Positions 5,186 to 23,458 of a stretch of DNA of 25,775 nt are shown piece after piece; the stretch's first letter is position 1, and each line of letters opens with the position of its first letter. The stretch is from a virus (taxonomy: Duplodnaviria > Heunggongvirae > Uroviricota > Caudoviricetes). Below the pieces are notes generated by a model. That model was not told the origin of the DNA. It ran no database searches and saw only the letters and a list, made by a program, of their open reading frames with translations. The position numbers and the translations under genes were made by a program. Where the stretch lies: the IMG/VR virus record IMGVR_UViG_3300047159_000049. One strand, written 5' to 3'.

Positions 5186-5203
5186 TTCCGCGCTTAAACG
5201 CAA

Positions 5204-5233: not shown

Positions 5234-5254
5234 GCTAGAAAGGAAACCGCGATT

Positions 5255-6142: not shown

Positions 6143-6272
6143 CTCCTTCGCTTATATCGACGAAGCGTTGGTGTATTTGGAATTGGCTGGGCTCGCCCCT
6201 CATCAATCAGATGATCCGTCTAAGCGCATGACTGAGCTTACGGAAAACAGAACATGTGAGAAAGGAATCCTT

Positions 6273-6425
6273 ATGCTGACAAGAGAAACAAAAGACGCTA
6301 ACGACAAACCAAAACGCGACTGGCTGGAAATAGCCGAGATCGTTCTTATGATGGCCGCATGCGCCGTGATGGCAGTCGCATGCGTCGCATTCGGATATGT
6401 CATCGTGAAAGGGGTGATGTCTTGA
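6273..6425 (+). CDS. Small single-TM membrane protein
   Basis: RBS AGAAAGGA, ATG 6273, hydrophobic stretch IAEIVLMMAACAVMAVACVAFGYVIV. Confidence 0.7.
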   Translation: MLTRETKDANDKPKRDWLEIAEIVLMMAACAVMAVACVAFGYVIVKGVMS

Positions 6426-7015
6426 TGCGGCGCTCTAGCATTCTATATCTGTCGAAGATAGCCCCAGACAACGGAAAGCGGTATTCCGCTTACTGCAAGC
6501 ACATCGACTACATCAGCCAATGGTGCTTTTACACCGCTTACGGAGACCTGGTGCAAGACGATGGCGATACCGGCAAGACCGTTGAGAAATTCGTCAAAGG
6601 CATCAACGAATACGCCGGGATGTCTCCTAACAGCCAAGACCGAGCAGTCCTAGTCGGAGGGGTTGGCCATCCTCCGTACTATATCTGTATCTCGGCCAGA
6701 TTCATCGATGCCTATCTGGACGCCAGATATCAGGAGATTCAGAGAATATTCAGATCGTTGACAAGCAAACAGTACATCAAGGGCTCAGCCAATTTCGACA
6801 AACTGGTTGATTATCTGAAATGCACAGGAGGAATCCATATTTTCGAGATCCAATCTGACGAGCCTAACTACAAGACCGCCATGGATTATACGTTTGAAGA
6901 GTTCCTCAGATTGTTGCGATCGGATATCTATTACCATCGCGGATCCAATACGAAAACGGTGCCAAACGAAAGCATCAATCTGTATGTGTACGGATCAGCC
7001 TTTTATACCTATTGA
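6425..7015 (+). CDS. Hypothetical protein
   Basis: TGATG stop/start overlap with the upstream gene; ~196 aa ORF. Confidence 0.75.
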   Translation: MRRSSILYLSKIAPDNGKRYSAYCKHIDYISQWCFYTAYGDLVQDDGDTGKTVEKFVKGINEYAGMSPNSQDRAVLVGGVGHPPYYICISARFIDAYLDARYQEIQRIFRSLTSKQYIKGSANFDKLVDYLKCTGGIHIFEIQSDEPNYKTAMDYTFEEFLRLLRSDIYYHRGSNTKTVPNESINLYVYGSAFYTY

Positions 7016-7029
7016 AAGGAGATATTATC

Positions 7030-7716
7030 ATGAATCCTAGTCTATTGAAAGATCTTGATCCTGGGTCATTTCTCAAGATCAAGAAGCTATACGTCACCTG
7101 CGTGTCATCCGGAGAGGATCTCATGCAGCCGGCATTGCTTGAGCCAGGAATCAAGCTTCCGATTCCGAAGTATCTCATAAACAAAGCCATTTCGGCCGAC
7201 ATCAGATACAACCGCAAATCATCGGCAGTGGTGTCATTCATGATGCCGGAAGGGCGCAACATCTGCGTCTATTACTCCGTCACAGATGGCAAAGGCCGTC
7301 TTGCCAGCGTGGACGTCGGAACCGACGGGATGTACTATGAGATTAAGAAATGCATCGTCGACACTCTGACGAACAGAGGCTTCTTCAATTTCACGGAGGC
7401 GTCCAGGCCATTCACCAGCTGCTACGTGTATACGACAAAGCTCATCCGAGAGTCTCTTATCCGAAACGGAACCGTGACTCCGTGGATAGAGAAAGTCAAA
7501 GAAAGATATGCCTGCAGCAGGGAGCCTGAGATCCATTTTGGCTGGAAGTATTCCGATGGCCGCAACGTCGGCCCTCATGAGCAAAAGAACTCATATATGT
7601 ACAGCAACTTCATCACGGTGTACGGCGAAGAAAGTATCAAGAACGCGGTAAACGCTTTCAAGGATTTAGTTCCAAAAGAGGTTTACGACTCTATGTACCT
7701 AAACGCCAGCATCTGA
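7030..7716 (+). CDS. Hypothetical protein
   Basis: RBS GAAAGGAG then ATG 7030; long ORF followed by a terminator. Confidence 0.8.
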   Translation: MNPSLLKDLDPGSFLKIKKLYVTCVSSGEDLMQPALLEPGIKLPIPKYLINKAISADIRYNRKSSAVVSFMMPEGRNICVYYSVTDGKGRLASVDVGTDGMYYEIKKCIVDTLTNRGFFNFTEASRPFTSCYVYTTKLIRESLIRNGTVTPWIEKVKERYACSREPEIHFGWKYSDGRNVGPHEQKNSYMYSNFITVYGEESIKNAVNAFKDLVPKEVYDSMYLNASI

Positions 7717-7720
7717 AACG

Positions 7721-7762
7721 ATCCGGAAGCCCGACAGCATCGGCCTTCCGGATTATTTTTTT
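7721..7762 (+). terminator. Intrinsic terminator
   Basis: ATCCGGAAG..CTTCCGGAT hairpin followed by a T-rich tract. Confidence 0.8.
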
Positions 7763-7790
7763 ATTTCCCGAATCGCCGAACAAATAATTT

Positions 7791-8027
7791 GTGCAGATAT
7801 GGCGTTACTATAGTGGTCACTTCGACGAATACCATCTGGCAAGCATTCCTTGGTCTGATGGCGCCGCCGTTTACCTCCCTAAGATCGATTTCGTCAACGC
7901 CAACTCTCCAAGCACATACTCGGCATTCGTCAAGATGAGCAAAGCCATGTGCGACAATTACATCACCTTCAATTTCAACGGAACTAGCGTATACGCGCTC
8001 ACGCAAGCCGGCGTAAAACTCGTGTAA
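7791..8027 (+). CDS. Possible small hypothetical protein
   Basis: 78-aa ORF with coding-like codon usage but a GTG start and no clear RBS. Confidence 0.4.
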   Translation: MQIWRYYSGHFDEYHLASIPWSDGAAVYLPKIDFVNANSPSTYSAFVKMSKAMCDNYITFNFNGTSVYALTQAGVKLV

Positions 8028-8144
8028 CCGTTTTCTGAAAACACTTACATACTGTCAGCTGCCTTGATAACGCCCTATATTGTAATGTCCGGATAACCAA
8101 TCCGGGCCAATTACAATATAGCCATTATCGAGAGGTTAACACAA

Positions 8145-8381
8145 ATGCTAGATGTAAAGTATTATGAATTAAAAGGCGTCGTTCATGGAGACGGATTCGT
8201 CGACAAGACGAAATACGTCACCAGAACGATGGCCGACAACCAGGTTGAGAAGCTTCTCTACAGAAACAATCTCCAGGTTGAAGACGTCATTCAGGTCAGC
8301 AAGCATGTCAAAGAGTACTACTGCGGCGACAAGTCAGCGTTCTGGGTCAGTCGGGTCGTGAAGCATTATGACTCCATCTGA
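8145..8381 (+). CDS. Hypothetical protein
   Basis: RBS GAGAGG, ATG, 78 aa. Confidence 0.7.
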   Translation: MLDVKYYELKGVVHGDGFVDKTKYVTRTMADNQVEKLLYRNNLQVEDVIQVSKHVKEYYCGDKSAFWVSRVVKHYDSI

Positions 8382-8577
8382 CGATGAGATGATGCTTGCC
8401 GAATTCCTGGCCGGGACTGATCGCTGGGCGGCGATGTTCCCGGACGAGAGGAAGCAAGCGGCAGAATCTGCGAAAGATCTTGCCAGCAGATTAGGCTCTA
8501 CGCCAGAAACCATATTCGATGGGACTCCGACCAAGAAGTTCTACGAGCGGTTTCTAAAGACCGGAAAGACTCTTTGA
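8368..8577 (+). CDS. Hypothetical protein
   Basis: 69-aa ORF overlapping the upstream stop, followed by a terminator. Confidence 0.6.
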   Translation: MTPSDDEMMLAEFLAGTDRWAAMFPDERKQAAESAKDLASRLGSTPETIFDGTPTKKFYERFLKTGKTL

Positions 8578-8582
8578 GAATA

Positions 8583-8612
8583 GAAGCGACAGCGATGCCG
8601 CTTCTTTTTTTT
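8583..8612 (+). terminator. Intrinsic terminator
   Basis: GAAGCG..CGCTTC followed by a long T run. Confidence 0.75.
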
Positions 8613-8623
8613 GAAACTAACGC

Positions 8624-8652
8624 TTGACCCTGAAGCCATATGCACCTATAAT
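8624..8652 (+). promoter_or_regulatory. sigma70/sigmaA-type promoter for the ncRNA/tRNA cluster
   Basis: TTGACC-N17-TATAAT. Confidence 0.8.
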
Positions 8653-9005
8653 AGTCTCAGATATCGAAATCGGTATCAGGAGAACCTTATGAAATTATCA
8701 GTCATGTCAAACGAAACGATTAAGCTTAGCAATGAGCTTAGTTTTGGCATGCCGGAGAATAAGGCGTCCTCGTATACCGATAGGCATTGTGATTGGCAGC
8801 GCGCATCAGTCGGCCCAAAGACCGCGGATAGATCCGTAACCAAATACGATTGCCTAATCGCTGATCAAAGCTCTTCGCAAGCGACATTGCGGTAAGCCCT
8901 GACTCCGATAATCAGTAAGCAATCGCGGACTCTAGCCCGCGGGGTATAAATACACAAGGCTGATCAGATTCAGTCTGCCAGCAAGGAATCCTTTTCCTTA
9001 GCCGG
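8653..9005 (+). ncRNA. Candidate ~350-nt structured non-coding RNA of unknown family
   Basis: Long-range helices ATCGGTAT/ATACCGAT (8669/8774), TGGCAG/CTGCCA (8794/8975), ACCGC/GCGGT (8821/8890); TTAAGCTTA-GCAA-TGAGCTTAG GNRA hairpin; lies between a promoter and the first tRNA. Confidence 0.55.
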
Positions 9006-9026
9006 AAAATAAAAATTATTTCTCGT

Positions 9027-9101
9027 GGTTCGTTGGCGAAACGGGAACGCATCAGGTCGCAACCCTGACACGACTCCGCTCGACACGGAGACGAACCTCC
9101 A
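9027..9101 (+). tRNA. tRNA-Cys(GCA)
   Basis: Cloverleaf, GGTTCGT/ACGAACC acceptor, U73, CCA; C33; T-loop CTCGACA. Confidence 0.9.
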
Positions 9102-9105
9102 ATAT

Positions 9106-9188
9106 GCCCACTTGGTCCAGTGGCAACGACGGCTGACTGTAAATCAGCTCCTTCGGGTTCGGTGGTTCGAGTCCATCAGTGGGCACCA
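9106..9188 (+). tRNA. tRNA-Tyr(GTA)
   Basis: Cloverleaf, long variable arm, TTCGAGT, CCA. Confidence 0.95.
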
Positions 9189-9194
9189 ATATAT

Positions 9195-9269
9195 GCAAGT
9201 GTAGTACAACGGCAGTATGCCGGCTTCCCAAGCCGGTGACACGGGATCGTTCACCCGTCACTTGCTCCA
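9195..9269 (+). tRNA. tRNA-Gly(CCC)
   Basis: GCAAGTG/CACTTGC, U73, CCA; atypical T-loop ATCGTTC. Confidence 0.9.
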
Positions 9270-9272
9270 GAT

Positions 9273-9346
9273 GCTGGCATGGTCAAACGGTATGACGGCT
9301 GTCCGCCAGACAGCCTGCACGGGTCCGACACCCGTTGCCAGCTCCA
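9273..9346 (+). tRNA. tRNA-Gly(GCC)
   Basis: GCTGGCA/TGCCAGC, U73; loop CC-GCC-AG; T-loop TCCGACA. Confidence 0.88.
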
Positions 9347-9350
9347 ATAC

Positions 9351-9425
9351 GGTGGCATGGTCTAACGGCTATGATGCTCGCCTGTCACGCGAGCGGTTCC
9401 GGATCGTCCCCGGATGTCACCGCCA
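9351..9425 (+). tRNA. tRNA-Asp(GTC)
   Basis: GGTGGCA/TGTCACC, G73, CCA; T-loop ATCGTCC. Confidence 0.9.
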
Positions 9426-9429
9426 ATAT

Positions 9430-9504
9430 GGGTCTCTAACACATGCGGTAGTGTGGGTGACTGAAAATCACCAGAAGCTGATTCAAACGCAGCGGGGCCC
9501 ACCA
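9430..9504 (+). tRNA. tRNA-Phe(GAA)
   Basis: GGGTCTC/GGGGCCC, loop CT-GAA-AA, irregular T arm, CCA. Confidence 0.85.
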
Positions 9505-9511
9505 ATTCAAT

Positions 9512-9586
9512 GGGGCTTTAGCTCAGTGGGAGAGCGCCTCCATGGCATGGAGGATGTCGAGGGTTCAAATCCCTCAAGTTCCACCA
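9512..9586 (+). tRNA. tRNA-Ala(GGC)
   Basis: GGGGCTT/AAGTTCC with G3.U70, TTCAAAT, CCA. Confidence 0.95.
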
Positions 9587-9590
9587 ATGT

Positions 9591-9679
9591 AGAGACTTGG
9601 CCGAACGGTAAGGCAATCGGTTGGAAGCCGATCGAGCGATCAACATCGCGAGCAGGTCCGACTCCTGTAGTCTCTGCCA
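9591..9679 (+). tRNA. tRNA-Ser(GGA)
   Basis: Long variable arm, G73, T-loop TCCGACT, CCA. Confidence 0.92.
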
Positions 9680-9683
9680 TCAT

Positions 9684-9762
9684 CGGGCTGTGGCCCAGCT
9701 TGGACTACGGCGCTTGCTTCGGGAGCAAGACATCGCAGGTTCGAATCCTGTCAGCCCGACCA
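9684..9762 (+). tRNA. tRNA-Pro(CGG)
   Basis: CGGGCTG/CAGCCCG, TTCGAAT, CCA. Confidence 0.93.
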
Positions 9763-9766
9763 ATAT

Positions 9767-9842
9767 GCCTCCTTAGCTCAGCGGCAGAGCAGCGGTCTCT
9801 TAAACCGTGGGTCCGGGGTCCGAATCCCCGAGGGGGGCACCA
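9767..9842 (+). tRNA. tRNA-Lys(CTT)
   Basis: Cloverleaf, T-loop TCCGAAT; one extra G in the 3' acceptor G-run (probable homopolymer error). Confidence 0.92.
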
Positions 9843-9856
9843 ATTACTATCAGATT

Positions 9857-9933
9857 CTCGACGTAGATCAATGGACAAGATCGGCTCTCCCCTAAAGAGC
9901 AGGTTCTAGGTTCGAATCCTAGCGTCGGGGCCA
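9857..9933 (+). tRNA. tRNA-Arg(CCT)
   Basis: CTCGACG/CGTCGGG, loop CC-CCT-AA, TTCGAAT, CCA. Confidence 0.9.
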
Positions 9934-9935
9934 AT

Positions 9936-10011
9936 GCCCAAGTAAGCCAGCGGACAGACGGAAGTTCCTCTAAAGCTTCAGGCAGAGGTTCGAATCCTCT
10001 CTTGGGCGCCA
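9936..10011 (+). tRNA. tRNA-Arg(TCT)
   Basis: GCCCAAG/CTTGGGC, anticodon stem AAGTT/AGCTT, loop CC-TCT-AA; weak D stem. Confidence 0.82.
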
Positions 10012-10014
10012 GAT

Positions 10015-10096
10015 GCTTGCTTGGCGCAATGGAAGACGCAGCGGACTCAAAATCCGCCGGGAAACCTTCAGGGTCCGAGTCCCTGAGCAAGCACCA
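10015..10096 (+). tRNA. tRNA-Leu(CAA)
   Basis: Variable arm with GAAA loop, T-loop TCCGAGT, A73, CCA. Confidence 0.93.
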
Positions 10097-10103
10097 TTCA
10101 TGT

Positions 10104-10190
10104 GGAGGATTACTCAAACGGCAAGAGGCCTGTTCGCTAAACAGGTAGCGGGTAACTCCGGAGTTGGTTCGACCCCAACATCCTCCGCCA
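10104..10190 (+). tRNA. tRNA-Ser(GCT)
   Basis: GGAGGAT/ATCCTCC, long variable arm, C33, G73. Confidence 0.92.
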
Positions 10191-10194
10191 TCAT

Positions 10195-10270
10195 CGTGAT
10201 GTCGTCTAATTCGGCAGGACACGTGCCTTGGGAGCACGGAATGAGGGATCGAAGCCCTACATCACGACCA
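10195..10270 (+). tRNA. tRNA-Pro(TGG)
   Basis: CGTGATG/CATCACG, T-loop ATCGAAG, CCA. Confidence 0.9.
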
Positions 10271-10274
10271 TTAT

Positions 10275-10361
10275 AGTGGGTTGACCGAACGGCAAGGTAT
10301 CGGCTTCGAAAGCCGACGAACGGGAAACCGCGAGCGGGTTCGACTCCTGCACCCACTGCCA
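10275..10361 (+). tRNA. tRNA-Ser(CGA)
   Basis: Long variable arm, TTCGACT, G73, CCA. Confidence 0.93.
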
Positions 10362-10366
10362 TTTGT

Positions 10367-10454
10367 AGAGGGCTGGCCGAGCGGCAAGGCATCGCGTCTG
10401 AGGCGCGACGAAGGACAGCATCCTGGGCGGGTTCGACTCCTGCGCCCTCTGCCA
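10367..10454 (+). tRNA. tRNA-Ser(TGA)
   Basis: Long variable arm, loop TC-TGA-GG, TTCGACT, G73. Confidence 0.9.
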
Positions 10455-10507
10455 AAAACGGGAAATAAAAAATAAATTCCCCGCGACGATCCGATCCGAT
10501 ACGATAT

Positions 10508-10582
10508 GGTCCCATAGAACAGCGTATTGTTCGCCGGGTTCTCAACCCGGAGATCGAGGGCAGGCACCTCATGGGATCACCA
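10508..10582 (+). tRNA. tRNA-Glu(CTC)
   Basis: GGTCCCA/TGGGATC, CCGGG-TTCTCAA-CCCGG; highly atypical T-loop GCAGGCA. Confidence 0.82.
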
Positions 10583-10584
10583 AT

Positions 10585-10660
10585 GGTCGCTTAGGCAATC
10601 GGCAAAGCCATGGGATTTTCACTCCTATATCAGCGCGATCGACACGCGCAGCGATCACCA
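10585..10660 (+). tRNA. tRNA-Glu(TTC)
   Basis: GGTCGCT/AGCGATC, T-loop ATCGACA, CCA. Confidence 0.88.
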
Positions 10661-10666
10661 TCACAT

Positions 10667-10742
10667 TCCCCTTTAGGCAAGCGGCTAAGCCACGAAGCTC
10701 TGAACTTCGCATAGCCACGCTCGACACGTGGAAGGGGAACCA
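10667..10742 (+). tRNA. tRNA-Gln(CTG)
   Basis: TCCCCTT/AAGGGGA (U1-A72), T-loop CTCGACA; near-duplicate of 11013-11088 outside the anticodon arm. Confidence 0.9.
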
Positions 10743-10744
10743 CT

Positions 10745-10818
10745 AGGGGTTTAGTCCAACGGTAGGACGGCGGTCCCCAAAACCGCTAACGGAGGTCCGA
10801 CACCTTCAACCTCTGCCA
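10745..10818 (+). tRNA. tRNA-Trp(CCA)
   Basis: AGGGGTT/AACCTCT, G73, loop CC-CCA-AA, TCCGACA. Confidence 0.9.
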
Positions 10819-10831
10819 TCAGAATTCTAGT

Positions 10832-10925
10832 CGGAAGAGCGCGCCGGTAACGCGTCCGCTTCCGGGGGATGCGCGCCATCGCATCCCATTATAACGGGAG
10901 GGCGGCTGCTGAGGCGCCCTCCCCA
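10832..10925 (+). ncRNA. Three-hairpin GC-rich element inside the tRNA array (unknown)
   Basis: CGGAAG..CTTCCG; GGGATGCG/CGCATCCC; GGGAGGGCG/CGCCCTCCC; not a cloverleaf. Confidence 0.45.
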
Positions 10926-10932
10926 TCAAGAT

Positions 10933-11006
10933 GGGTCTTTAGCTCAACGATAGAGCGCTCGGCCGTTAACCGAACAACAAGCGTCTGACTCGCTTAAGGC
11001 CCGCCA
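10933..11006 (+). tRNA. tRNA-Asn(GTT)
   Basis: GGGTCTT/AAGGCCC, G73; C33; D-loop A19 with T-loop T56 (TCTGACT). Confidence 0.88.
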
Positions 11007-11012
11007 ACTTAT

Positions 11013-11088
11013 TCCCCTTTAGGCAAGCGGTCAAGCCACAGGACCTTGAATCCTGCATAGCCACGCTCGACACGTGGAAGGGGAACCA
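11013..11088 (+). tRNA. tRNA-Gln(TTG)
   Basis: Same body as Gln(CTG); loop CC-TTG-AA. Confidence 0.9.
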
Positions 11089-11091
11089 CAT

Positions 11092-11169
11092 CTCCCATTA
11101 GCTCAACTGGATCAGAGCGTGTCGCCACGGACGATAAGGTTAGGGGTTCAAATCCTCTATGGGAGACCA
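11092..11169 (+). tRNA. tRNA-Arg(ACG)
   Basis: CTCCCAT/ATGGGAG, loop CC-ACG-GA, TTCAAAT. Confidence 0.9.
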
Positions 11170-11173
11170 ATTT

Positions 11174-11248
11174 GCTTCGATAGCTCAGCGGCAGAGCAGC
11201 GGGCTTTTAACCCGTGGGTCCAGAGTCCGAATCTCTGTCGAAGCACCA
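11174..11248 (+). tRNA. tRNA-Lys(TTT)
   Basis: GCTTCGA/TCGAAGC, TCCGAAT, CCA. Confidence 0.93.
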
Positions 11249-11251
11249 GAT

Positions 11252-11325
11252 GCCCTTGTAGTTAAACGGCAGAACGGATCCATGGTAAGGATCAGGTCTC
11301 AGTCCGACTCTGGGTGAGGGCACCA
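11252..11325 (+). tRNA. tRNA-Thr(GGT)
   Basis: GCCCTTG/TGAGGGC, TCCGACT, CCA. Confidence 0.9.
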
Positions 11326-11332
11326 ATTGCAT

Positions 11333-11406
11333 GGCCGAGTCGTTCAACGGTAGGACAGACGCCCCATACGCGTCGAACGGAAGTCCAACTCTTCTCTCGG
11401 CTACCA
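11333..11406 (+). tRNA. tRNA-Met/Ile2(CAT)
   Basis: GGCCGAG/CTCGGCT, loop CC-CAT-AC, TCCAACT; Met versus Ile2 cannot be resolved by eye. Confidence 0.85.
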
Positions 11407-11411
11407 AATTC

Positions 11412-11487
11412 GCCGGTCTAGTTCAGTGGCAGAACAGCCGTCTCGTAAGCGGCAAACCATTGGGTCCGATTCCCTGGCCCGGCACCA
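11412..11487 (+). tRNA. tRNA-Thr(CGT)
   Basis: GCCGGTC/GCCCGGC, loop CT-CGT-AA, TCCGATT. Confidence 0.88.
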
Positions 11488-11505
11488 TACGATACTAACA
11501 CGATT

Positions 11506-11590
11506 GCTTGAGTGGCGGAACCGGTATACGCAACGGACTTAAAATCCGTCGCCTTAGGGCTTGCGGGTCCGAATCCCGCCTCAAGCACCA
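11506..11590 (+). tRNA. tRNA-Leu(TAA)
   Basis: Long variable arm, TCCGAAT, A73. Confidence 0.93.
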
Positions 11591-11595
11591 CATCT

Positions 11596-11670
11596 GCTCG
11601 ATTAGCTCAGCGGGAGAGCGGCCCCTTTACACGGGGCGGGTCGTCGGTCCAAACCCGGCATCGAGTACCA
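11596..11670 (+). tRNA. tRNA-Val(TAC)
   Basis: GCTCGAT/ATCGAGT, TCCAAAC, CCA. Confidence 0.92.
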
Positions 11671-11673
11671 TTT

Positions 11674-11748
11674 GCCTCTATAGCTCAGTAGGAAGAGCGG
11701 GCGTCTTGTAAGCGTCTGATTCCCGTCCGAATCGGAATGGAGGCACCA
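11674..11748 (+). tRNA. tRNA-Thr(TGT)
   Basis: GCCTCTA/TGGAGGC, loop CT-TGT-AA, TCCGAAT. Confidence 0.9.
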
Positions 11749-11751
11749 TTT

Positions 11752-11827
11752 GTCCCAATAATCCAACGGCAGAGATGACAGCCTTAGAAGCTGTACAGTC
11801 CTGGTTCAAATCCAGGTTGGGACACCA
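11752..11827 (+). tRNA. tRNA with TAG anticodon (nominal Leu) and short variable loop
   Basis: GTCCCAA/TTGGGAC, ACAGC-CTTAGAA-GCTGT, 5-nt variable loop, TTCAAAT. Confidence 0.88.
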
Positions 11828-11833
11828 TTACAT

Positions 11834-11908
11834 CCTGGTGTAGCTCAGCGGTAGAGCGATCGGCTGATAACCGATAGGTCGGGAGGCCAGCACTCTCTAC
11901 CAGGACCA
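11834..11908 (+). tRNA. tRNA-Ile(GAT)
   Basis: CCTGGTG/TACCAGG, loop CT-GAT-AA, atypical T-loop GCCAGCA. Confidence 0.87.
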
Positions 11909-11911
11909 TTT

Positions 11912-11986
11912 GTCCGATTAGTTCAGCGGGAGAACGCTTCCTTGACATGGAAGAGGTCGATCGATCGTCACGATCATCGGACACCA
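11912..11986 (+). tRNA. tRNA-Val(GAC)
   Basis: GTCCGAT/ATCGGAC, T-loop ATCGTCA. Confidence 0.9.
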
Positions 11987-11992
11987 ATATTT

Positions 11993-12067
11993 CTTCGCGT
12001 AGCTCAGCGGGAGAGCGTCCCCTTCACGAGGGGAAGGCCGATCGACCATCACGATCCGCGAAGACCA
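11993..12067 (+). tRNA. tRNA-Val(CAC)
   Basis: CTTCGCG/CGCGAAG, T-loop ACCATCA. Confidence 0.88.
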
Positions 12068-12070
12068 GAT

Positions 12071-12144
12071 GGGTCTGTAGTTCAACGGGAAAACGCTGCT
12101 TCCGCAAGGCAAAGTTCCGGGTTCGATTCCCGGTAGATCCACCA
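12071..12144 (+). tRNA. tRNA-Ala(CGC)
   Basis: GGGTCTG/TAGATCC with G3.U70, loop TC-CGC-AA, TTCGATT. Confidence 0.9.
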
Positions 12145-12151
12145 TTCTGAT

Positions 12152-12226
12152 GAGGACTCTAGCCTAAAGGTAAGGCATCCGACTGTGAATCGGAAAAAGC
12201 CGGGTCAGTACCGACGAGTCCTCCCA
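12152..12226 (+). tRNA. tRNA-His(GTG)
   Basis: G-1:C73 pair, AGGACTC/GAGTCCT, loop CT-GTG-AA, T-loop GTCAGTA. Confidence 0.9.
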
Positions 12227-12232
12227 TTCTAT

Positions 12233-12318
12233 GCCCTCGTGGCGAAATTGGTATACGCGCTGCTTTGAGGTGGCAGTGATCCAAAGTCGTACAGGTTCAA
12301 GTCCTGCCGAGGGCACCA
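12233..12318 (+). tRNA. tRNA-Leu(GAG)
   Basis: Long variable arm, TTCAAGT, A73, CCA. Confidence 0.92.
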
Positions 12319-12326
12319 GACACAAT

Positions 12327-12354
12327 AGCCCAAGAGATATCTTGGGCTTTTCTT
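12327..12354 (+). terminator. Intrinsic terminator closing the tRNA array
   Basis: AGCCCAAGA-gata-TCTTGGGCT followed by TTTTCTT. Confidence 0.88.
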
Positions 12355-12355
12355 G

Positions 12356-12384
12356 TTATCACGGGCAGTTCGAAAATATATGAT
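12356..12384 (+). promoter_or_regulatory. Possible sigma70-type promoter
   Basis: TTATCA-N17-TATGAT. Confidence 0.45.
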
Positions 12385-12409
12385 TTAATTGAAGAAAGGA
12401 GGATGGATC

Positions 12410-12775
12410 ATGACCAAAGTCGTGTCCGTCTGCAGATCGCTATGCAAAGCAAGCGATCAAGCATACTCTGAGCTTCTTGATGAGATAGATCGTGGTGGCA
12501 TCCGCCTTCACGTCGTCGAGTTGAGAAAGCTCAATAGGATGTTTCCGCATCCTATCAAAGGATGGAAGACCACAGGATATCGCTCCATAGATGGCCTGGA
12601 CGTCTACATCGAGAAAACCTCAATGGCCAACTCAGTGCATCTTCTGATGCACGAGCTGACGCATTCAGTTCAGGCGAATTCAGGGTTAGACCTGAGATCG
12701 CCTGGCATAGAAGACGAAGCCGAGAGAATCGGCTTCAGATTCTACAAGAGGTATCAAAGATCGGTTGGCAAATAG
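12410..12775 (+). CDS. Small zinc metallopeptidase-like protein (HEXXH)
   Basis: RBS AGAAAGGAGG; LLMHELTHSVQ followed by EDEAE (third-ligand Glu pattern of ImmA/IrrE-like and related zincins). Confidence 0.7.
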   Translation: MTKVVSVCRSLCKASDQAYSELLDEIDRGGIRLHVVELRKLNRMFPHPIKGWKTTGYRSIDGLDVYIEKTSMANSVHLLMHELTHSVQANSGLDLRSPGIEDEAERIGFRFYKRYQRSVGK

Positions 12776-12827
12776 CTGGCCGATCTTTTTTACGACCGCA
12801 ACAATAGATTATCGGAGGATAGTTGCT

Positions 12828-13145
12828 ATGACATACAACGAAAGATGCGCTAAAATGATCAGCGCCGGATACGATCCGGACAACATAACCTGGGAAGAGG
12901 TCTGCATCCTTGAAGGATGGAATCCTACCGGGGACCCGAAGAAAGACGAGGAAGCCAGAGCTAAGAATGGCGGAAAGCCGGCCCCGATGATCCAGTCGCA
13001 CATCCCCGCCAAAGACAACGCCATCCAAGCCATCAAAAATCAGCTATCAGATCTTGAATACGATTACGCTCATTATCATGTCGGACCTTCAGACTATGCC
13101 GAGAAGAAAGCAGCTCTTCAGACAAAGCTGAATGGATTGAAGTGA
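12828..13145 (+). CDS. Hypothetical protein
   Basis: RBS GGAGGA, ATG 12828, 105 aa. Confidence 0.75.
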   Translation: MTYNERCAKMISAGYDPDNITWEEVCILEGWNPTGDPKKDEEARAKNGGKPAPMIQSHIPAKDNAIQAIKNQLSDLEYDYAHYHVGPSDYAEKKAALQTKLNGLK

Positions 13146-13224
13146 TTCGTTTGGGCTGAAGACAGCATTCGTGCAGCCGGTATTCGGTCCACCTCTAGGC
13201 TGGGAAAGTTCTCGCCAAGATAGA

Positions 13225-13257
13225 TCCCCGAGAGATCGGGGGTTTATTTTATTTTTT
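13225..13257 (+). terminator. Intrinsic terminator
   Basis: CCCCG-agagat-CGGGG followed by TTTATTTTATTTTTT. Confidence 0.7.
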
Positions 13258-13265
13258 CCTCAGCA

Positions 13266-13294
13266 TTGACCTCCGCTCCTAGGCATGGTATCAT
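13266..13294 (+). promoter_or_regulatory. sigma70/sigmaA-type promoter
   Basis: TTGACC-N17-TATCAT with TG extended -10. Confidence 0.7.
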
Positions 13295-13300
13295 TTCGTC

Positions 13301-14257
13301 GTGGAAAGAAGGCTATTTGAGATGGACATCATCAAAAATACTAAGACCAACGAGATGAGAGGATGCGACAAGATTTATGCTGTTTTAGCAGCACATAAGC
13401 ATGAATCACGTCCATATGATGAAGACTTACCAGACATCTATGTTTTGGAATTCGGAAGATTCCCGATCAATGAAGATTTTTACAATTTCGAATACAGCGG
13501 ATCAAAGCAAGACATAAATGCGTTGTATGATCTGTATAATGATCAAGGCAAAGAGATTGCTGAAGTAATCACTAGGGCGATAGCTACTTCGAAAGGCTCA
13601 TCAGAGGATTTAATCAAGATGCTTGGAGGAGCTGCCGCTGTAGCATCATTTTGCGCGATCATTTCTGATGATCTTATGTGCAAAGATACTATTAAGTATT
13701 TATATAATAATGATTGCGATTTCAAAGCTGCGAATGCAAAAGGATTTTATAAAAATATCTTTGACATAGACGATAATTTATACAAGATGTCGTCGCATGA
13801 TTTAAGATTACATATGGCAGAAAATGTATGCACAAACGCCAAACTAATCGATACATTGATGAATAAGGCGGACGATGTTGATTCTAGATATACCTTTATG
13901 GGCATGCTGTACAATAATGCTAAAAACATCGACGACGATACGAAAGCGTATGAGAAGATGACTTTGTTTGGAAAGCCTATCACCATGTATCTAATGGAGC
14001 CTGGAGATTTTAAGCAGTGGCTTTATTGGATGATCTTTGACATAAACAGCGATTTGGCCATAAAGCTTATGTCTGATCAAGGATATGCCTCAACGGTGAT
14101 TTCCAAGATTCAGAAAGAGATCGATGATGCCATCAATAGAAAGAACGAATCTAATACGAGAGCCGATGCCGAAATAGATATCCTTAAGCACAAACTCGAG
14201 GATTTCAAGAAACTAAACTGCTCAGGCGGCGGGATTTCCTGGGAAGACGAGAAATGA
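13301..14257 (+). CDS. Hypothetical protein (AT-richer than neighbours; start may be ATG 13322)
   Basis: 318-aa ORF downstream of a promoter. Confidence 0.8.
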   Translation: MERRLFEMDIIKNTKTNEMRGCDKIYAVLAAHKHESRPYDEDLPDIYVLEFGRFPINEDFYNFEYSGSKQDINALYDLYNDQGKEIAEVITRAIATSKGSSEDLIKMLGGAAAVASFCAIISDDLMCKDTIKYLYNNDCDFKAANAKGFYKNIFDIDDNLYKMSSHDLRLHMAENVCTNAKLIDTLMNKADDVDSRYTFMGMLYNNAKNIDDDTKAYEKMTLFGKPITMYLMEPGDFKQWLYWMIFDINSDLAIKLMSDQGYASTVISKIQKEIDDAINRKNESNTRADAEIDILKHKLEDFKKLNCSGGGISWEDEK

Positions 14258-14931
14258 GCGACCGAGGATACATTGGAACGGCTAACGAGTCTAATGGCCT
14301 TTTCATGATCGATCGCCAAAAATCGTTTGTGAATGTCAGATCGGAAATGGAAAACAGCCCAGACGATTGGCATATCGCCGGGATGGTCAAGCTCCATGAT
14401 GGCAAAATCGATACCGGAAAGATCAAGTCGTATAACATGATTCTTGTTAAGAACGACATCGATATCTCCGGCAAATCGCCATCGGTTTTGATATTTCCGG
14501 CTGTTACCGATGAATACATTCCAATGATTCCAGCCGTCAAAGATGCCTATGACGCAGCGACAAGCAAATTCATCATTTCCAATCCTGGGAATTGCAAAAG
14601 CTACATCATAATGGAAACGCCAAAAGCCCCCAATTGCAAAATAGACATGTTCGTCGGCATCACTGCCAAGTCTTGTCGCACATCGATAGACTTCGGAGTG
14701 AGGATCAAGGACAGTGATCCGCTCACTCTTTCAGTAACGTCAGACATCAACGAATACGTCAAGTGCGCCCAGAAATGGGATGCGAGCCATATCAAGCTTC
14801 AGCTGATAGAGATCCATACCTGCAGCGTCACAACAAGCGCAAGGCTTCTGCGAAGCATAGTGGCTTCCTTCCCGAAGTCAGAGCAGGAAAACCCAGCTAT
14901 CGCAACAGCCCTTCTTAACGTCGAAATCTGA
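14254..14931 (+). CDS. Hypothetical protein
   Basis: ATGA overlap with the upstream stop; 225 aa. Confidence 0.8.
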   Translation: MSDRGYIGTANESNGLFMIDRQKSFVNVRSEMENSPDDWHIAGMVKLHDGKIDTGKIKSYNMILVKNDIDISGKSPSVLIFPAVTDEYIPMIPAVKDAYDAATSKFIISNPGNCKSYIIMETPKAPNCKIDMFVGITAKSCRTSIDFGVRIKDSDPLTLSVTSDINEYVKCAQKWDASHIKLQLIEIHTCSVTTSARLLRSIVASFPKSEQENPAIATALLNVEI

Positions 14932-14984
14932 TATCTCTGGCAAATCGCGCATGAACGATATATGATACTTGTGACTAGAAAGGA

Positions 14985-15830
14985 ATGTTCATGGAAAATA
15001 TTTTTAAAATCCTCAGGAACTACATCCTAATCAAACGGTTCCCGTTTCTGCATCCTCCCGAAGATTATTGCGGCAACGCTTTGGCAAAGCATGACTACCG
15101 CTACACGTACCTCGATGACATCCCAGACGGATGGCGAAAGGCATTCGGAGTGAAGCTCTGCAAGGAGCTGAAAGCCCAGCTTAAGAAAGATGGGCTCCTG
15201 GAGAAGTACCAGGTGGAGCAGGTGAAAGAGAAATACGGAACGCTTTGCTGGTATGACAGCGGAGGCAATGAGGCAACCGAGGAGATCGTCATGAAATACG
15301 AAGACGTCTCAGAATCGGTGTGCGCCCTTTGCGGAAAGCCGTCGTCTTACATCACGAGCGGGTATGTCTTGTACATATGCAAAGCTTGCTATGAGAAATC
15401 CGTCAAGCACGAATACGCCAGCAAGCTAACGTGGAGCGACACCCCTCATAGGAACTATCGCCTTGACAGCGGCGATTACGTCAATAAATTCTCGCCTATA
15501 GAAAGCACATTCGAGAAGATATGGGACCCGATAACCCCGAGTCGGTCGGAGGACGTCATCATGGACGCTGAATGCAGAAAAGCCGAAATCAAGAGAGACC
15601 TGTGCATACAGATCGCTCAATTCACCATCAATGACGCGTACGATTATCTGTCAAGGATGTTCATGCGCGTCGACGACGAGCGCGATGATCCTGATCATGA
15701 CGCGTACAAACAGCAGATCGACATCATTTTGGCTGAGCTCAGCGCGCTGCGCAAGAAGTTCGGAGGCGACGCCATCGTCGACTACGACTTCACGAACAGC
15801 GAATTGAAGACCAGCAAAGCCGGCGCGTGA
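14985..15830 (+). CDS. Conserved-looking phage hypothetical protein
   Basis: RBS AGAAAGGA; DIPDGW and QVKEKYGTLCWY motifs plus CxxC, a pattern I recall from uncharacterised phage proteins. Confidence 0.8.
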   Translation: MFMENIFKILRNYILIKRFPFLHPPEDYCGNALAKHDYRYTYLDDIPDGWRKAFGVKLCKELKAQLKKDGLLEKYQVEQVKEKYGTLCWYDSGGNEATEEIVMKYEDVSESVCALCGKPSSYITSGYVLYICKACYEKSVKHEYASKLTWSDTPHRNYRLDSGDYVNKFSPIESTFEKIWDPITPSRSEDVIMDAECRKAEIKRDLCIQIAQFTINDAYDYLSRMFMRVDDERDDPDHDAYKQQIDIILAELSALRKKFGGDAIVDYDFTNSELKTSKAGA

Positions 15831-16600
15831 CATCGCCGAAGAAAGGACAAATGAATTTTATGAATAAGACCACAGAAGTGTCGGAGATCCTGGCTCTCAT
15901 CGGAGCCATGACGACCGCCAAGAGATACGAGCTTAACGCCCAACAGACAAACGAGGCGCAATCGGTGTCTGCCCTAGGGGCGATCAACGCCCTGTCCGAG
16001 CTCGACCACGAAATCCGCAACCGCCTCGAAGAAGAGGCGAAGCCAGCTCCGGCTGAGGCCAATCCCCAGCCGCAGCAAACGCTTCTCGAAGGCAAGGATC
16101 CGGAAGGCCAATTCGAGGATAAGACCCCTGACCGCAGCGAAGAGGACGCCGCCAAGGCGCATGCCGCAAGCAAGCAGGAGATCATCCATTCCAAATACGC
16201 CAAGCGCGACGCCGACAAAGACAGCGCCTTGATGAGCGACCCCAATTCGGTCAACGTCAAGATGACCATCGCCGGCCAAACGTCGACGATGTACGTCGGC
16301 ATCATCAAAGCCGCTCCGGACAATCCCGGGGCCAAATACCATCATCGCGACACCTTCCACATCCTTCTCGTCGGAGATCCGGCGACCGAGATGGGATCCA
16401 GCGTCTCGAGGAGCGATTCGGCGGACATCCACTTCCCGGGATCCAAGGGCAACCAATACGACAAGATCGACAAACTGCTCGTCCATGTGATGAGAGTCAA
16501 TGAGAACGATGGCAATATGTACAAGTATCGCCGCGTCTTCTGCGACTGCTTCGCCCAGGCGCTCCGCAACTGCGGATACCTCGCTGCGAAGAAAAAATAA
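15827..16600 (+). CDS. Hypothetical protein (start possibly ATG 15851)
   Basis: 257-aa ORF; RBS GAAAGGA before ATG 15851. Confidence 0.8.
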   Translation: MTSPKKGQMNFMNKTTEVSEILALIGAMTTAKRYELNAQQTNEAQSVSALGAINALSELDHEIRNRLEEEAKPAPAEANPQPQQTLLEGKDPEGQFEDKTPDRSEEDAAKAHAASKQEIIHSKYAKRDADKDSALMSDPNSVNVKMTIAGQTSTMYVGIIKAAPDNPGAKYHHRDTFHILLVGDPATEMGSSVSRSDSADIHFPGSKGNQYDKIDKLLVHVMRVNENDGNMYKYRRVFCDCFAQALRNCGYLAAKKK

Positions 16601-16666
16601 AATAAATCCCTGGACGGAATCGGCAATAGATACTACAATATCTATGATCCCATCCAGGGGTGTCGC

Positions 16667-16740
16667 GCGGGATTTGTTCAATGGTAGAACATCACCCCTC
16701 CAAGGTGAATACGCGGGTCCGATTCCCGTATCTCGCTCCA
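16667..16740 (+). tRNA. tRNA-Gly(TCC)
   Basis: GCGGGAT/ATCTCGC, U73, loop CC-TCC-AA, TCCGATT. Confidence 0.92.
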
Positions 16741-16819
16741 GATCGGCCAGAGGGGCGGTACCCCCAAAAGGCCGAGAAACGCGCAGGGTAATGGCAAGCC
16801 CTCAATAGCTTGCCTTAAT

Positions 16820-16895
16820 GGGGCTTTAGCTCAGCCGGGAGAGCGCCTGCTTTGCAAGCAGGAGGTCAGGGGTCCGATCCCCCTAAGTTCCACCA
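16820..16895 (+). tRNA. tRNA-Ala(TGC)
   Basis: GGGGCTT/AAGTTCC with G3.U70, TCCGATC. Confidence 0.95.
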
Positions 16896-16899
16896 GCAT

Positions 16900-16996
16900 A
16901 GTCGGGTATCTCAATGTTTAGAGAGTTCAACTTATAATTGAATGTAAAAGCTGATACAATCAGTGAATGTGGGTTAAAGTCCCGCCCCGACTACCA
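16900..16996 (+). tRNA. tRNA-Ile(TAT) with 26-nt variable region
   Basis: AGTCGGG/CCCGACT, D stem TCTC/GAGA, TTCAA-CTTATAA-TTGAA, V-arm GCTGAT/ATCAGT, T-loop TTAAAGT, CCA. Confidence 0.8.
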
Positions 16997-17140
16997 TCTA
17001 AAAATAAGAGTCGCGTATGCGGTTCTTTTTTTTTGATTAAAGCAACCGCTAAATTAGTTATAGTAGTAGTCATTTTGCCGATACAAGATATATAATAATC
17101 GTGAGCGAAGGACGATTGTAAGTCCGCTCAACGTTCGTTC

Positions 17141-17217
<77 letters not shown>

Positions 17218-17219
17218 GT

Positions 17220-17307
17220 GGAAGGATGGCCGAGTGGTTGATGGCACCGGTCTTGAAAACCGGCAGGGAGCAATCCCTCTAGGGTTCAAACCCCTATCCT
17301 TCCGCCA
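17220..17307 (+). tRNA. tRNA-Ser(TGA), second copy
   Basis: GGAAGGA/TCCTTCC, canonical U33 and TTCAAAC, long variable arm. Confidence 0.95.
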
Positions 17308-17322
17308 ATACGATACTAAAGA

Positions 17323-17417
17323 CCTGTACCCTTGGACCGGCTAAAGACCGGGAAACTCGGATCAGACCACGGAAACGCGGCAAGGATCAACAGGCCTGCG
17401 CGAAATAAAAGGGTAGG
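17323..17417 (+). ncRNA. Candidate small structured RNA downstream of tRNA-Ser
   Basis: Closing helix TACCCTT/AAGGGTA around two GAAA-loop hairpins. Confidence 0.4.
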
Positions 17418-17496
17418 AGAATAAGCGCTTGAAATTCGTTGTTTAAGGCCTCAAGAAAATTAAAATATTTCCAGGTCGGAAAGGGCATATACTATC

Positions 17497-18018
17497 ATGG
17501 AAGACGAAGGTTTTGTTTTGCGCCGAATCGCCTCGGAAAAGAGAGCTCCAAAAGGCGCCCCAGAAATGATTACTATCAAGGCGTACATGCTAGACAATAA
17601 GAGAAAATGCCAAGCAAGATGCTTCTGGAATACATGCACACGCTACATCGATGCCAGCAGCCTTGATGACATCTCAGCGACGGATGTGATCGAAGATCTG
17701 AAGAAATCCGGTTATGCCCAATGGCGCGACTGGATGATCAGCAAGGAATTCTTGAGGAACGCCAAAGGAATTCATATTGATTTAGATATCATACATTCGA
17801 CTACGTCACTAACGGATATCGAGAACGTGCTTGGCTGGGGCGGGGTTCCAAAGGACAACCCCAGCGTTTTGATTACGATACGCTACAAAGGCCTACGGGC
17901 ATCGTTCTGTTCGCCAGATCTCGAAGATGTCAAGATATCGCTTAATCAGATCAAGCTTCTAGGAAACGACAGGCTGAGCATCGAATCTGATCAGATCGCG
18001 ATGAGTCTTAGCATTTGA
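17497..18018 (+). CDS. Hypothetical protein, paralog A
   Basis: 173 aa; shares GYxxWRxWMIxKxF and the C-terminal pattern with the next gene. Confidence 0.8.
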   Translation: MEDEGFVLRRIASEKRAPKGAPEMITIKAYMLDNKRKCQARCFWNTCTRYIDASSLDDISATDVIEDLKKSGYAQWRDWMISKEFLRNAKGIHIDLDIIHSTTSLTDIENVLGWGGVPKDNPSVLITIRYKGLRASFCSPDLEDVKISLNQIKLLGNDRLSIESDQIAMSLSI

Positions 18019-18037
18019 TTTTAGAAAGGAGATCGCT

Positions 18038-18613
18038 ATGGACAGCAAAGGATTCACCATCAAGCAGATCATGGAATCTGTAAGCGAAGACGACGAGCTT
18101 AAAAAACTAATCAAATCCTACCCAGACGTGATTTCGGTCAAGACATACGGCCGCGAAGACGAAGAAGGAACTGAGCTAAAATGCAAATGGATGGACGTCC
18201 GAGACAGCGAAGGCAGCTCCAAAGAGCTAAAAGTCTCGTTCGACGACATCTCGTCAAGCATCATCTACAAGGATCTGGAATCGATGGGATACATCAGATG
18301 GCGCAATTGGATGATCGGCAAGGACTTCTTCAAATCCAACGAGAAAGGCCTTAGCGTAATCTGCAGGCGTTTCGATCCATCGAACAACGTCCTTATGTTG
18401 ATGACGCTGATGACAAGCCGATCGTCGTCTGCGGAAGACTTCAAGCCTAAAGTCGTCGTCGCCATCGTCAGGGAATCGACCGAGCAAGTCGTGGCGTCGT
18501 TTTATTCAGGGACCGACAAAGACGCCAAGCTATCGCTCGACGATATCAAGAATCTCGGAAGCGAGGATCTATCTATGCAGGCCGATGAGCTGACGGTAGA
18601 TCTTCAGATCTGA
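18038..18613 (+). CDS. Hypothetical protein, paralog B
   Basis: RBS AGAAAGGAG; 191 aa; similar to 17497-18018. Confidence 0.82.
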   Translation: MDSKGFTIKQIMESVSEDDELKKLIKSYPDVISVKTYGREDEEGTELKCKWMDVRDSEGSSKELKVSFDDISSSIIYKDLESMGYIRWRNWMIGKDFFKSNEKGLSVICRRFDPSNNVLMLMTLMTSRSSSAEDFKPKVVVAIVRESTEQVVASFYSGTDKDAKLSLDDIKNLGSEDLSMQADELTVDLQI

Positions 18614-18654
18614 CGCCGGGCTTCAAAGAAAGGAAAAAATAAAATAATTTCTAT

Positions 18655-19980: not shown

Positions 19981-19991
19981 GGAGGTCTGAT

Positions 19992-20672: not shown

Positions 20673-20685
20673 CTAGTATAATGTA

Positions 20686-20828: not shown

Positions 20829-20857
20829 GGTGCACCGAAAGGAAAAAAATAAAAATT

Positions 20858-22537: not shown

Positions 22538-22614
22538 AGCGGGTATACGGAACCGGGTATCCTATCAGCCTCATAAGCTGAAAATAGTGGGTTCGACTCT
22601 CACTCCCGCAACCA
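22538..22614 (+). tRNA. tRNA-Met(CAT), initiator-like acceptor end
   Basis: TCAGC-CTCATAA-GCTGA, TTCGACT, 3' CCCGCA-A-CCA with unpaired 1:72 as in fMet; lacks the three G-C anticodon-stem pairs. Confidence 0.82.
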
Positions 22615-22959: not shown

Positions 22960-23372
22960 GGGCCTGCCCAGGTTTTGACGGAGGCGACCAGATCTTAGTC
23001 GCAGCGGCCCGGTGAGCCTAATACACCAAGCCCAATAATCGCTAACGGTTATCATTATAACTACGGCGCAAGCCGTAGCTATGCCTACGCTGCCTAAGGC
23101 GTAGACCTCAGCTAGTCTGGGGCTCGTCGATCCTGCGGGACCGATGGCACGTCATCCGCGTTGTTTACGTCTCCAACGCGGGGAGTGACGTCACAAAAAG
23201 ACCGACGCTTCCGGTCCCATGGCAAACGGGAACGGAAAACGGTTATCGCCGATTGCTATCACGGCGTCAGTTCCGTTGGCGTAGATGCGCCGTGATTACA
23301 AACGCCAAACAAGCTGTAGTGACTATTTGATGGAACCTTCGGACAGGGGTTCGATTCCCCTCAGGTCCACCA
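22960..23372 (+). ncRNA. ssrA: tmRNA
   Basis: 5' GGGCCTG..GGTTTTGACGG pairs with 3' CAGGTCC-A-CCA (G3.U70); T arm GGGGTTCGATTCCCC; tag frame 23041-23097 ANGYHYNYGASRSYAYAA-stop after AATAATC. Confidence 0.93.
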
Positions 23373-23373: not shown

Positions 23374-23458
23374 GCGCGAATGGCGAAATGGTATACGCTG
23401 CGGTCTCAGAAGCCGCTGCCCCAAAAGCATGCTGGTTCAACTCCAGTTTCGCGCACCA
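23374..23458 (+). tRNA. tRNA-Leu(CAG)
   Basis: GCGCGAA/TTCGCGC, long variable arm, TTCAACT, CCA. Confidence 0.93.

Follow-up and report, generated by a model that had tools for sequence, protein, structure and literature searches.

The tRNA locus

The stretch of DNA analysed here, referred to as the window, comprises 25,775 nucleotides of the IMG/VR record IMGVR_UViG_3300047159_000049 (Caudoviricetes). It contains 45 tRNA genes covering all 20 amino acids and one transfer-messenger RNA (tmRNA) gene, and in 33 of the 45 tRNAs one or more of three loop uridines are missing, namely U33 of the anticodon loop and U54 and U55 of the T-loop. The window is part of an uncultivated giant phage for which no close relative was found among cultured phages; its gene products include a reverse transcriptase, an SbcC-like ATPase and a fragment of a phage-type RNA polymerase beta. 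Most of the tRNA genes form a main array, and the remainder is distributed over a second cluster, a pair of second copies and single genes further downstream (Table 1).

Gene finding with ARAGORN yielded 41 tRNAs and the tmRNA, to which the Rfam model RF00005 added the Asn-GTT, the second Met-CAT and the Ile-GAT gene. The remaining gene, Glu-CTC, was missed by both programs but folds in isolation into a cloverleaf with a minimum free energy of -32.5 kcal/mol (z -3.67). The RF00005 gathering score of 29 bits is reached by 39/45 tRNAs; the six missed by Rfam (Cys, Ser-TGA, Glu-CTC, both Gln species and Val-CAC) are either called by ARAGORN or fold into a cloverleaf. With ARAGORN at default settings missing 4/45 and Rfam 6/45 tRNAs, the array shows that T-loop-variant tRNA genes are under-called by standard finders. 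All 45 tRNAs display a 7-nt anticodon loop, and each gene is followed by an encoded CCA.

Table 1. Positions of tRNA genes and associated elements in the window.
Feature	Position	Strand	Remarks
Sigma-70-like promoter	8624..8652	+	TTGACC-17-TATAAT, 11/12 match; ~375 nt upstream of main array
Main array, 38 tRNA genes	9027..12318	+	spacers 2-20 nt, three longer gaps; CCA encoded
Candidate tRNA-Glu(CTC)	10508..10582	+	T-loop GCAGGCA (G54 C55 A56 G58), D-loop AGCGTATT (T19)
tRNA-Asn(GTT)	10933..11006	+	T-loop TCTGACT (C55, T56), D-loop AACGATA (A19), C33
Second tRNA-Met(CAT)	11333..11406		C33
tRNA-Ile(GAT)	11834..11908	+	T-loop GCCAGCA (G54 C55 G58); Rfam 51.8 bits
tRNA-His(GTG)	12153..12226	+	T-loop GTCAGTA (G54, G58)
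Intrinsic-terminator-like hairpin and T-run	12327..12348	+	9 nt past last main-array tRNA
Second cluster: Gly-TCC (C33, C55), Ala-TGC (C55), Ile-TAT (97 nt, T19/A56)	16667..16996	+	
Terminator-like hairpin after second cluster	17006..17027		
Promoter-like site ahead of second copies	17067..17096		
Arg-TCT and Ser-TGA, second copies	17141..17307	+	both fully canonical (TTC, U33)
tRNA-Met(CAT)	22539..22610	+	canonical TTC
tmRNA	22960..23372	+	tag ANGYHYNYGASRSYAYAA; canonical T-arm GGGGTTCGATTCCCC
tRNA-Leu(CAG)	23374..23458	+	canonical TTC

Loop uridines 33, 54 and 55

Few nucleotides in biology are as strongly conserved as T54-Psi55-C56 and U33. Within the window, the canonical TTC at positions 54-56 is found in only 17/45 tRNAs, and the 28/45 non-TTC tRNAs affect about 16 amino acids. 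TCC is the most frequent variant (14 tRNAs), followed by ATC in five (Gly-CCC, Asp, Pro-TGG, Glu-TTC and Val-GAC) and CTC in three (Cys, Gln-CTG and Gln-TTG), while GTC (His), ACC (Val-CAC), GCC (Ile-GAT), GCA (Glu-CTC), TCT (Asn) and TTA (Ile-TAT) occur once each. Among the 38 tRNAs of the main array, 13 carry TTC, 12 TCC and 13 another variant. Altogether, C55 is present in 18/45 tRNAs and a nucleotide other than U54 in 12; both changes coincide in three, so that 27/45 tRNAs have a replacement at U54 or U55. A first-pass annotation, made from the sequence of the window, had counted 17 TTC and 14 TCC loops, and the recount agrees. It likewise agrees with the three further C55 tRNAs listed there (Asn, Ile-GAT and Val-CAC), to which Glu-CTC is added as a fourth, and with the count of about ten tRNAs with a replaced T54, which is 12 here.

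In the anticodon loop, U33 is retained in 32/45 tRNAs and replaced by C33 in the other 13 (Cys, Gly-GCC, Arg-CCT, Arg-TCT, Ser-GCT, Ser-TGA, Trp, Asn, Gln-TTG, Arg-ACG, Met at 11333, Ala-CGC and Gly-TCC), compared with a C33 frequency of 2-4% in controls and about 11% in environmental arrays. The presence of C33 is linked neither to the state of the T-loop nor to C34 (4/15 C34 tRNAs vs 9/30 others). The changes at positions 33 and 55 are exclusively transitions, giving 13 and 18 C, respectively, and no A or G. Tyr and Phe, each represented by a single species, are among the eleven tRNAs that are fully canonical at all three positions.

The conservation of individual positions was compared between 43 parsed tRNAs of the window and 78 tRNAs of related phages. 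Depletion is confined to the three loop uridines: U33 is found in 30/43 tRNAs (96% in the relatives), U54 in 33/43 (96%) and U55 in 27/43 (100%). The other structural positions, in contrast, are retained at A14 (41/41 vs 95%), G18-G19 (41/43 vs 75/78), G53 (41/43 vs 99%), C56 (41/43 vs 96%), C61 (41/43 vs 99%) and U8 (42/43 vs 96%), where the sole apparent exception is a parse shift, U8 being T in all tRNAs. Counted over the complete set, G18-G19 and C56 are each retained in 42/45 tRNAs, and the three tRNAs without C56 are compensated at position 19. U8, A14, G18-G19, G53-C61 and the 3' CCA thus correspond to those of a canonical elongator tRNA, whereas U33 and T54-Psi55-C56 do not. The proposal of the first-pass annotation that the elbow is remodelled in both T-loop and D-loop is therefore not sustained: the D-loop and the elbow platform are intact, and the change is limited to U54 and U55 plus U33, which lies outside the elbow.

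Fold and covariation

Two sets of covarying positions can be observed within the array. At the tertiary 19:56 pair, covariation is exact, with A19/T56 in Asn and T19/A56 in both Ile-TAT and Glu-CTC, while the other 42 tRNAs combine GG with C56 (Fisher P = 7e-5), in full accordance with the covariation noted in these three tRNAs by the first-pass annotation. In addition, each change at position 58 is accompanied by a change at position 54 (P = 1.7e-5), giving the combinations A54/T58 (four tRNAs), A54/A58 (two), G54/G58 (three) and C54/A58 (three). The same four combinations are the recurring 54/58 alternatives among about 1320 environmental tRNAs (A/T 23, A/A 8, G/G 7 and C/A 3), where all other cases total five. 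U.A, C.A, A.A and G.G are all able to form the trans Watson-Crick/Hoogsteen pair needed by the T-loop.

The stems are paired at 845/860 positions (98.3%), equal to the relatives, and A.C stem mismatches amount to 0.93%, compared with 0.77-0.98% in controls. Pairwise identity among array members does not exceed 0.83, except for the Gln pair at 0.91, and the 14 TCC genes are therefore not recent copies of one another, so that recent duplication was rejected as their origin. A decaying pseudogene array was rejected as well, given a mismatch rate equal to that of the controls and deviations found only at positions 33, 54 and 55 together with 58. Due to the paired stems, the non-duplicate genes and the position-specific nature of the change, decay is excluded and functional tRNAs are argued for. 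The earlier view that these are real, folded tRNAs is supported by the stems, the 7-nt anticodon loops, the encoded CCA, the promoter and terminator elements and both covariations. In conclusion, the tRNAs of the window are folded tRNAs with a position-specific change.

Three members of the set show individual peculiarities. The tRNA with anticodon TAG (Leu, 11752-11827) is only 76 nt long and has a 5-nt variable loop, whereas the other Leu tRNAs carry long variable arms. The Ile-TAT tRNA (16900-16996) has a higher AT content than its neighbours and accommodates a 6-bp extra arm in its variable region. In the Phe tRNA (9430-9504), A53 faces G61 instead of the conserved G53-C61 pair that closes the T-loop.

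Authenticity of the loop bases

Three JGI samples (3300059061, 3300055294 and 3300056808) gave independent assemblies of the same phage, and one Logan run gave a partial one. From position 1500 onward these assemblies are >99.9% identical to the window, and the D- and T-loops are identical in all 34 tRNAs called there by ARAGORN. For the first tRNA of the array, the same loop bases are also present in the Logan contig. Within the array, only the length of a G homopolymer at 9832 differs, by one nucleotide. It is therefore virtually inconceivable that the loop variants are a sequencing or assembly artefact, such as systematic miscalls in a long-read assembly. Against the other assemblies the window does contain at least 17 single-base indels outside the array, as is typical of an error-prone assembly; the loop changes, however, are substitutions rather than indels, covary with their partner positions and recur in the three metagenomes assembled separately. 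The loop variants do not belong to the indel noise of the window.

The single-base indels, counted against the assembly from sample 3300059061, lie between 1550 and 9832, several of them in homopolymers, and truncate open reading frames (ORFs), reducing the reverse transcriptase to 308 instead of 475 amino acids and the polymerase-like gene product to 481 instead of 527. Since many one-base indels occur outside the array, the window is probably the noisier, more error-prone assembly. The first 1500 positions, which include the RNA polymerase beta fragment, differ from the three assemblies at 268 positions with many gaps, compared with only about 26 differences in the next 13 kb. This segment looks like a recombinant or hypervariable region beside the reverse transcriptase gene.

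Island context and relatives

The tRNA genes lie in a variable island, flanked on one side by a conserved polymerase-like gene and on the other by the SbcC-like gene. A 19-kb stretch (5200-24400) comprising the tRNA arrays, the tmRNA and about 12 ORFs of unknown function is absent from this site in four related loci (L009, L010, L296 and L297). A relative with 77% identity (L005-L008 and L301-L305) has no array at the locus and contains only a C55 tRNA-Met and an orthologous tmRNA, the canonical T-arm of which is identical to that of the window (L005). An AT-rich relative (G001) carries its canonical array at this site. A single-protein scan of IMG/VR revealed no close relatives with arrays. 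Searches in Pfam, PHROGs, NCBIfam, PADLOC and the ESM Atlas gave no match for the roughly 12 island ORFs and no nuclease, deaminase or tRNA-modifying domain in any ORF of the window.

Comparison with other tRNA arrays

Five giant-phage arrays of the same family, with 45-50% identity in the conserved neighbouring gene, contain 73/79 TTC loops, compared with 17/45 in the window (P = 9e-11). Three cultured phages (63%, 54% and 45% guanine-cytosine (GC) content) retain TTC in 81/82 and U33 in 80/82 tRNAs. A further control set was collected from metagenomes with a D-arm probe, a 22-nt word of the Lys tRNAs of the window, the matches to which are unrelated tRNAs and serve as control only. Among the matches listed, TTC is present in 96/96 tRNAs containing this word and in 427/468 of all tRNAs in the respective loci, with TCC accounting for 3.8% and C33 for 11% of the latter.

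With a single C55 T-arm probe, at least 118 IMG/VR loci with a C55 tRNA were found, most of the arrays having no more than two of them. The same probe applied to GTDB genomes gave, among the matches listed, 91/120 loci with single C55 tRNAs amid TTC neighbours; these loci (L175-L294) belong to many bacterial and archaeal metagenome-assembled genomes, and the tRNAs are chiefly Gly-GCC, Glu, Thr and Met. Such cellular C55 tRNAs share the single substitution with the window and are otherwise normal, but they represent single genes, whereas 28/45 tRNAs for about 16 amino acids deviate from TTC in the window. The staphylococcal non-proteinogenic tRNA-Gly species without T-Psi-C show the same kind of change, also in single genes.

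For IMG/VR arrays of at least 20 tRNAs, the highest non-TTC fraction among the matches listed is 45%, compared with 62% in the window, and across 39 IMG/VR arrays the non-TTC fraction is not correlated with GC content (rho 0.03). An independent instance of U55 loss is provided by an unrelated array of 29 tRNAs in a 102-kb provirus record of IMG/VR (L088), in which 13 tRNAs are non-TTC (6 TCC, 6 TGC and 1 AGC). As in the window, U55 is lost in many array members and the fold is kept. However, the G55 members of this array mostly lack the D-loop GG, forming a rewired elbow in which G18 is changed to A and U55 to G. The tRNAs of the window, with C55, no G55, a conserved G18 and an unchanged D-loop, do not belong to this A18/G55 type. 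The same division is found among the approximately 1320 environmental tRNAs, where 152/156 C55 tRNAs have an intact GG and 24/26 G55 tRNAs have lost it. Among phage arrays, heavy alteration of the T-loops can also be observed in L085, L152 and L166. No match to the marker gene of the phage family of the window was detected in L080, L085, L088, L152 or L166, several of these records being fragmentary. Sporadic C55 is thus common in phage arrays, and the array of the window stands at the far end of a recurring phenomenon.

Possible escape from a T-loop nuclease

The pattern of replacement resembles the requirements of known tRNA-cleaving nucleases (tRNases). CbCash, a CRISPR-associated Schlafen and cA4-activated tRNase, cuts 5' of U55 in the T-loop UUC of many tRNAs, and cleavage is abolished by single mutations of U54 or U55 (PMC13462974). 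A second T-loop enzyme, CdiA-CT(E479), cleaves between T and Psi (PMC9086364). The nucleotides recognized by these enzymes, U54-U55 in UUC and T/Psi, respectively, are those replaced in 27/45 tRNAs of the window. Both enzymes are candidate selective agents and not homologues of anything encoded in the window, where, moreover, TCC loops keep a U-C step and 17 tRNAs keep UUC. Whether Cash targets phage tRNAs was left as an open question by its authors in July 2026 (PMC13462974). Escape of phage tRNAs from anticodon nucleases via loop mutations is a hypothesis with experimental examples, in which the T-loop was not considered (PMC10264068). The phage tRNAs described there (van den Berg et al. 2023) and those of T5 in relation to PARIS and Retron-Eco7 (PMC11464382, PMC11555353) resemble the present set in that a large phage set carries substitutions at nucleotides needed by the nuclease while decoding is kept, and the 13 C33 of the window even lie in the anticodon loop. 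Unlike the tRNAs of that report (PMC10264068), however, the set of the window has its main changes in the T-loop (U54 and U55) and is a candidate for nuclease resistance.

It is quite possible, and the best-supported of the readings considered, that the loss of loop uridines represents escape from a tRNase that needs U54-U55. The phage carries a near-complete decoding set of 45 tRNAs for 20 amino acids in operons running from promoter to terminator, and the exposed, near-invariant loop uridines have been replaced in most of these tRNAs under retention of the L-shape. Position 55 remains a pyrimidine (U to C), position 54 varies only along with 58, as A/T, A/A, G/G or C/A, and position 56 varies only with its Watson-Crick partner 19. 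According to this proposal, variant tRNAs might still translate but would cease to be substrates of a U54-U55-requiring tRNase, and phage translation would continue when a host response destroys canonical tRNAs. We infer that the variants are expressed and charged, that they resist cleavage and that a host nuclease of this kind exists. The proposal is supported by a loss specific to positions 33, 54 and 55, by the preserved fold and by the restriction of the change to this lineage in comparison with relatives and cultured phages.

Several observations weigh against escape from such a nuclease. With 11 tRNAs, among them the sole ones for Tyr and Phe, and the tmRNA being canonical, translation would still be stalled by a nuclease of broad UUC specificity. 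The TCC loops retain a U-C step, shifted by one position (U54-C55), and resistance of the TCC tRNAs is therefore not certain. In three tRNAs both 54 and 55 are changed, which a single nuclease would not demand. C33 is not tied to C34, so that the anticodon site cut by Cash, U33-C34, leaves C33 unexplained; removal of this site was rejected as the cause of C33. No nuclease gene was seen among the ORFs of the window. Furthermore, positions 33 and 55 show T-to-C changes only, in a lineage of 50% GC, compared with 26-35% in its TTC-keeping relatives, which makes mutation bias a confounding factor. With respect to the array-wide escape from an elbow-reading factor suggested by the first-pass annotation, a T-loop defence nuclease does exist in the form of CbCash, but escape would be incomplete as long as 11 tRNAs are fully canonical. 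T-box sensing, suggested there as an alternative, was rejected. The 19:56 face is where T-box stem I, the L1 stalk and RNase P stack, and since it is conserved or compensated throughout the set, escape from T-box recognition fits poorly.

Alternative explanations

The main rival, although rather unlikely, is tolerated drift, according to which U33 and U55, as well as U54 together with position 58, are weakly constrained because phage tRNAs serve for a short time and in high dosage, and T-to-C changes became fixed without an adaptive role as GC content rose from about 30% to 50%. Drift would account for the restriction to transitions at 33 and 55, for a GC content of 50% in the window and 55-58% in the array as opposed to 26-35% in the TTC-keeping relatives, and for variable D-loop positions that are C-rich as well (AACGG and AGCGG, compared with AGTTGG in the relatives). 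The sporadic occurrence of C55 and C33 in environmental arrays, the 11 tRNAs that are still canonical and the three double hits point in the same direction. However, cultured phages with 54% and 63% GC retain TTC in 57/57 and U33 in 56/57 tRNAs, and GC content does not predict the non-TTC fraction of IMG/VR arrays; as a sufficient cause, GC content was therefore rejected. In addition, U8 is T in all tRNAs, A.C stem mismatches are not elevated, U54 changes are mostly transversions compensated at 58, and no IMG/VR array of at least 20 tRNAs among the matches listed reaches the non-TTC fraction of the window.

The change might alternatively serve host takeover instead of defence escape, by marking the tRNAs of the phage as distinct from those of the host. 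U54 and U55 are modified by TrmA/TrmFO and TruB, and as substrates of these host enzymes they could have been lost to avoid them; otherwise, the phage set could be exempt from a nuclease or sequestering protein of the phage that removes canonical host tRNAs. With a near-complete tRNA set the phage could live without host tRNAs, and the island ORFs of unknown function could encode such a factor. Nevertheless, marking of this kind appears improbable, given that no nuclease, deaminase or tRNA-modifying domain was detected in the ORFs of the window and that the 17 phage tRNAs with TTC would be hit as well. C-to-U RNA editing, which would deaminate the genomic C33 and C55 after transcription and thereby restore canonical mature tRNAs, is suggested by the one-directional T-to-C change at two invariant uridines but is very improbable. 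It was rejected as the main cause on the basis of stem A.C mismatches at control level; moreover, U54 changes to A or G and the changes at 58 and 19:56 are irreparable by C-to-U editing, and the ORFs of the window gave no deaminase domain. No editing is known to occur at tRNA positions 33 or 55.

Implications

The window provides a natural set in which 33/45 tRNAs are devoid of one or more of U33, U54 and U55 while every other structural rule is kept. It thereby offers a ready panel for determining how little of the T-loop suffices for a bacterial tRNA to work, and also for the question, raised by the Cash paper, of whether phage tRNAs evade T-loop nucleases. The T-loop change may be a form of the known phage counter-defence and lends itself to direct tests with the published enzymes. 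Somewhat doubtfully, the set may be regarded as a natural, near-complete design of tRNAs with uridine-free loops, a working alternative tRNA design with which translation would continue although every tRNA with U54-U55 (and U33) is destroyed by an enzyme of the host or the phage. If this is so, T-loop counter-defence would be a general, as yet undescribed arm of the tRNA arms race between phages and their hosts.

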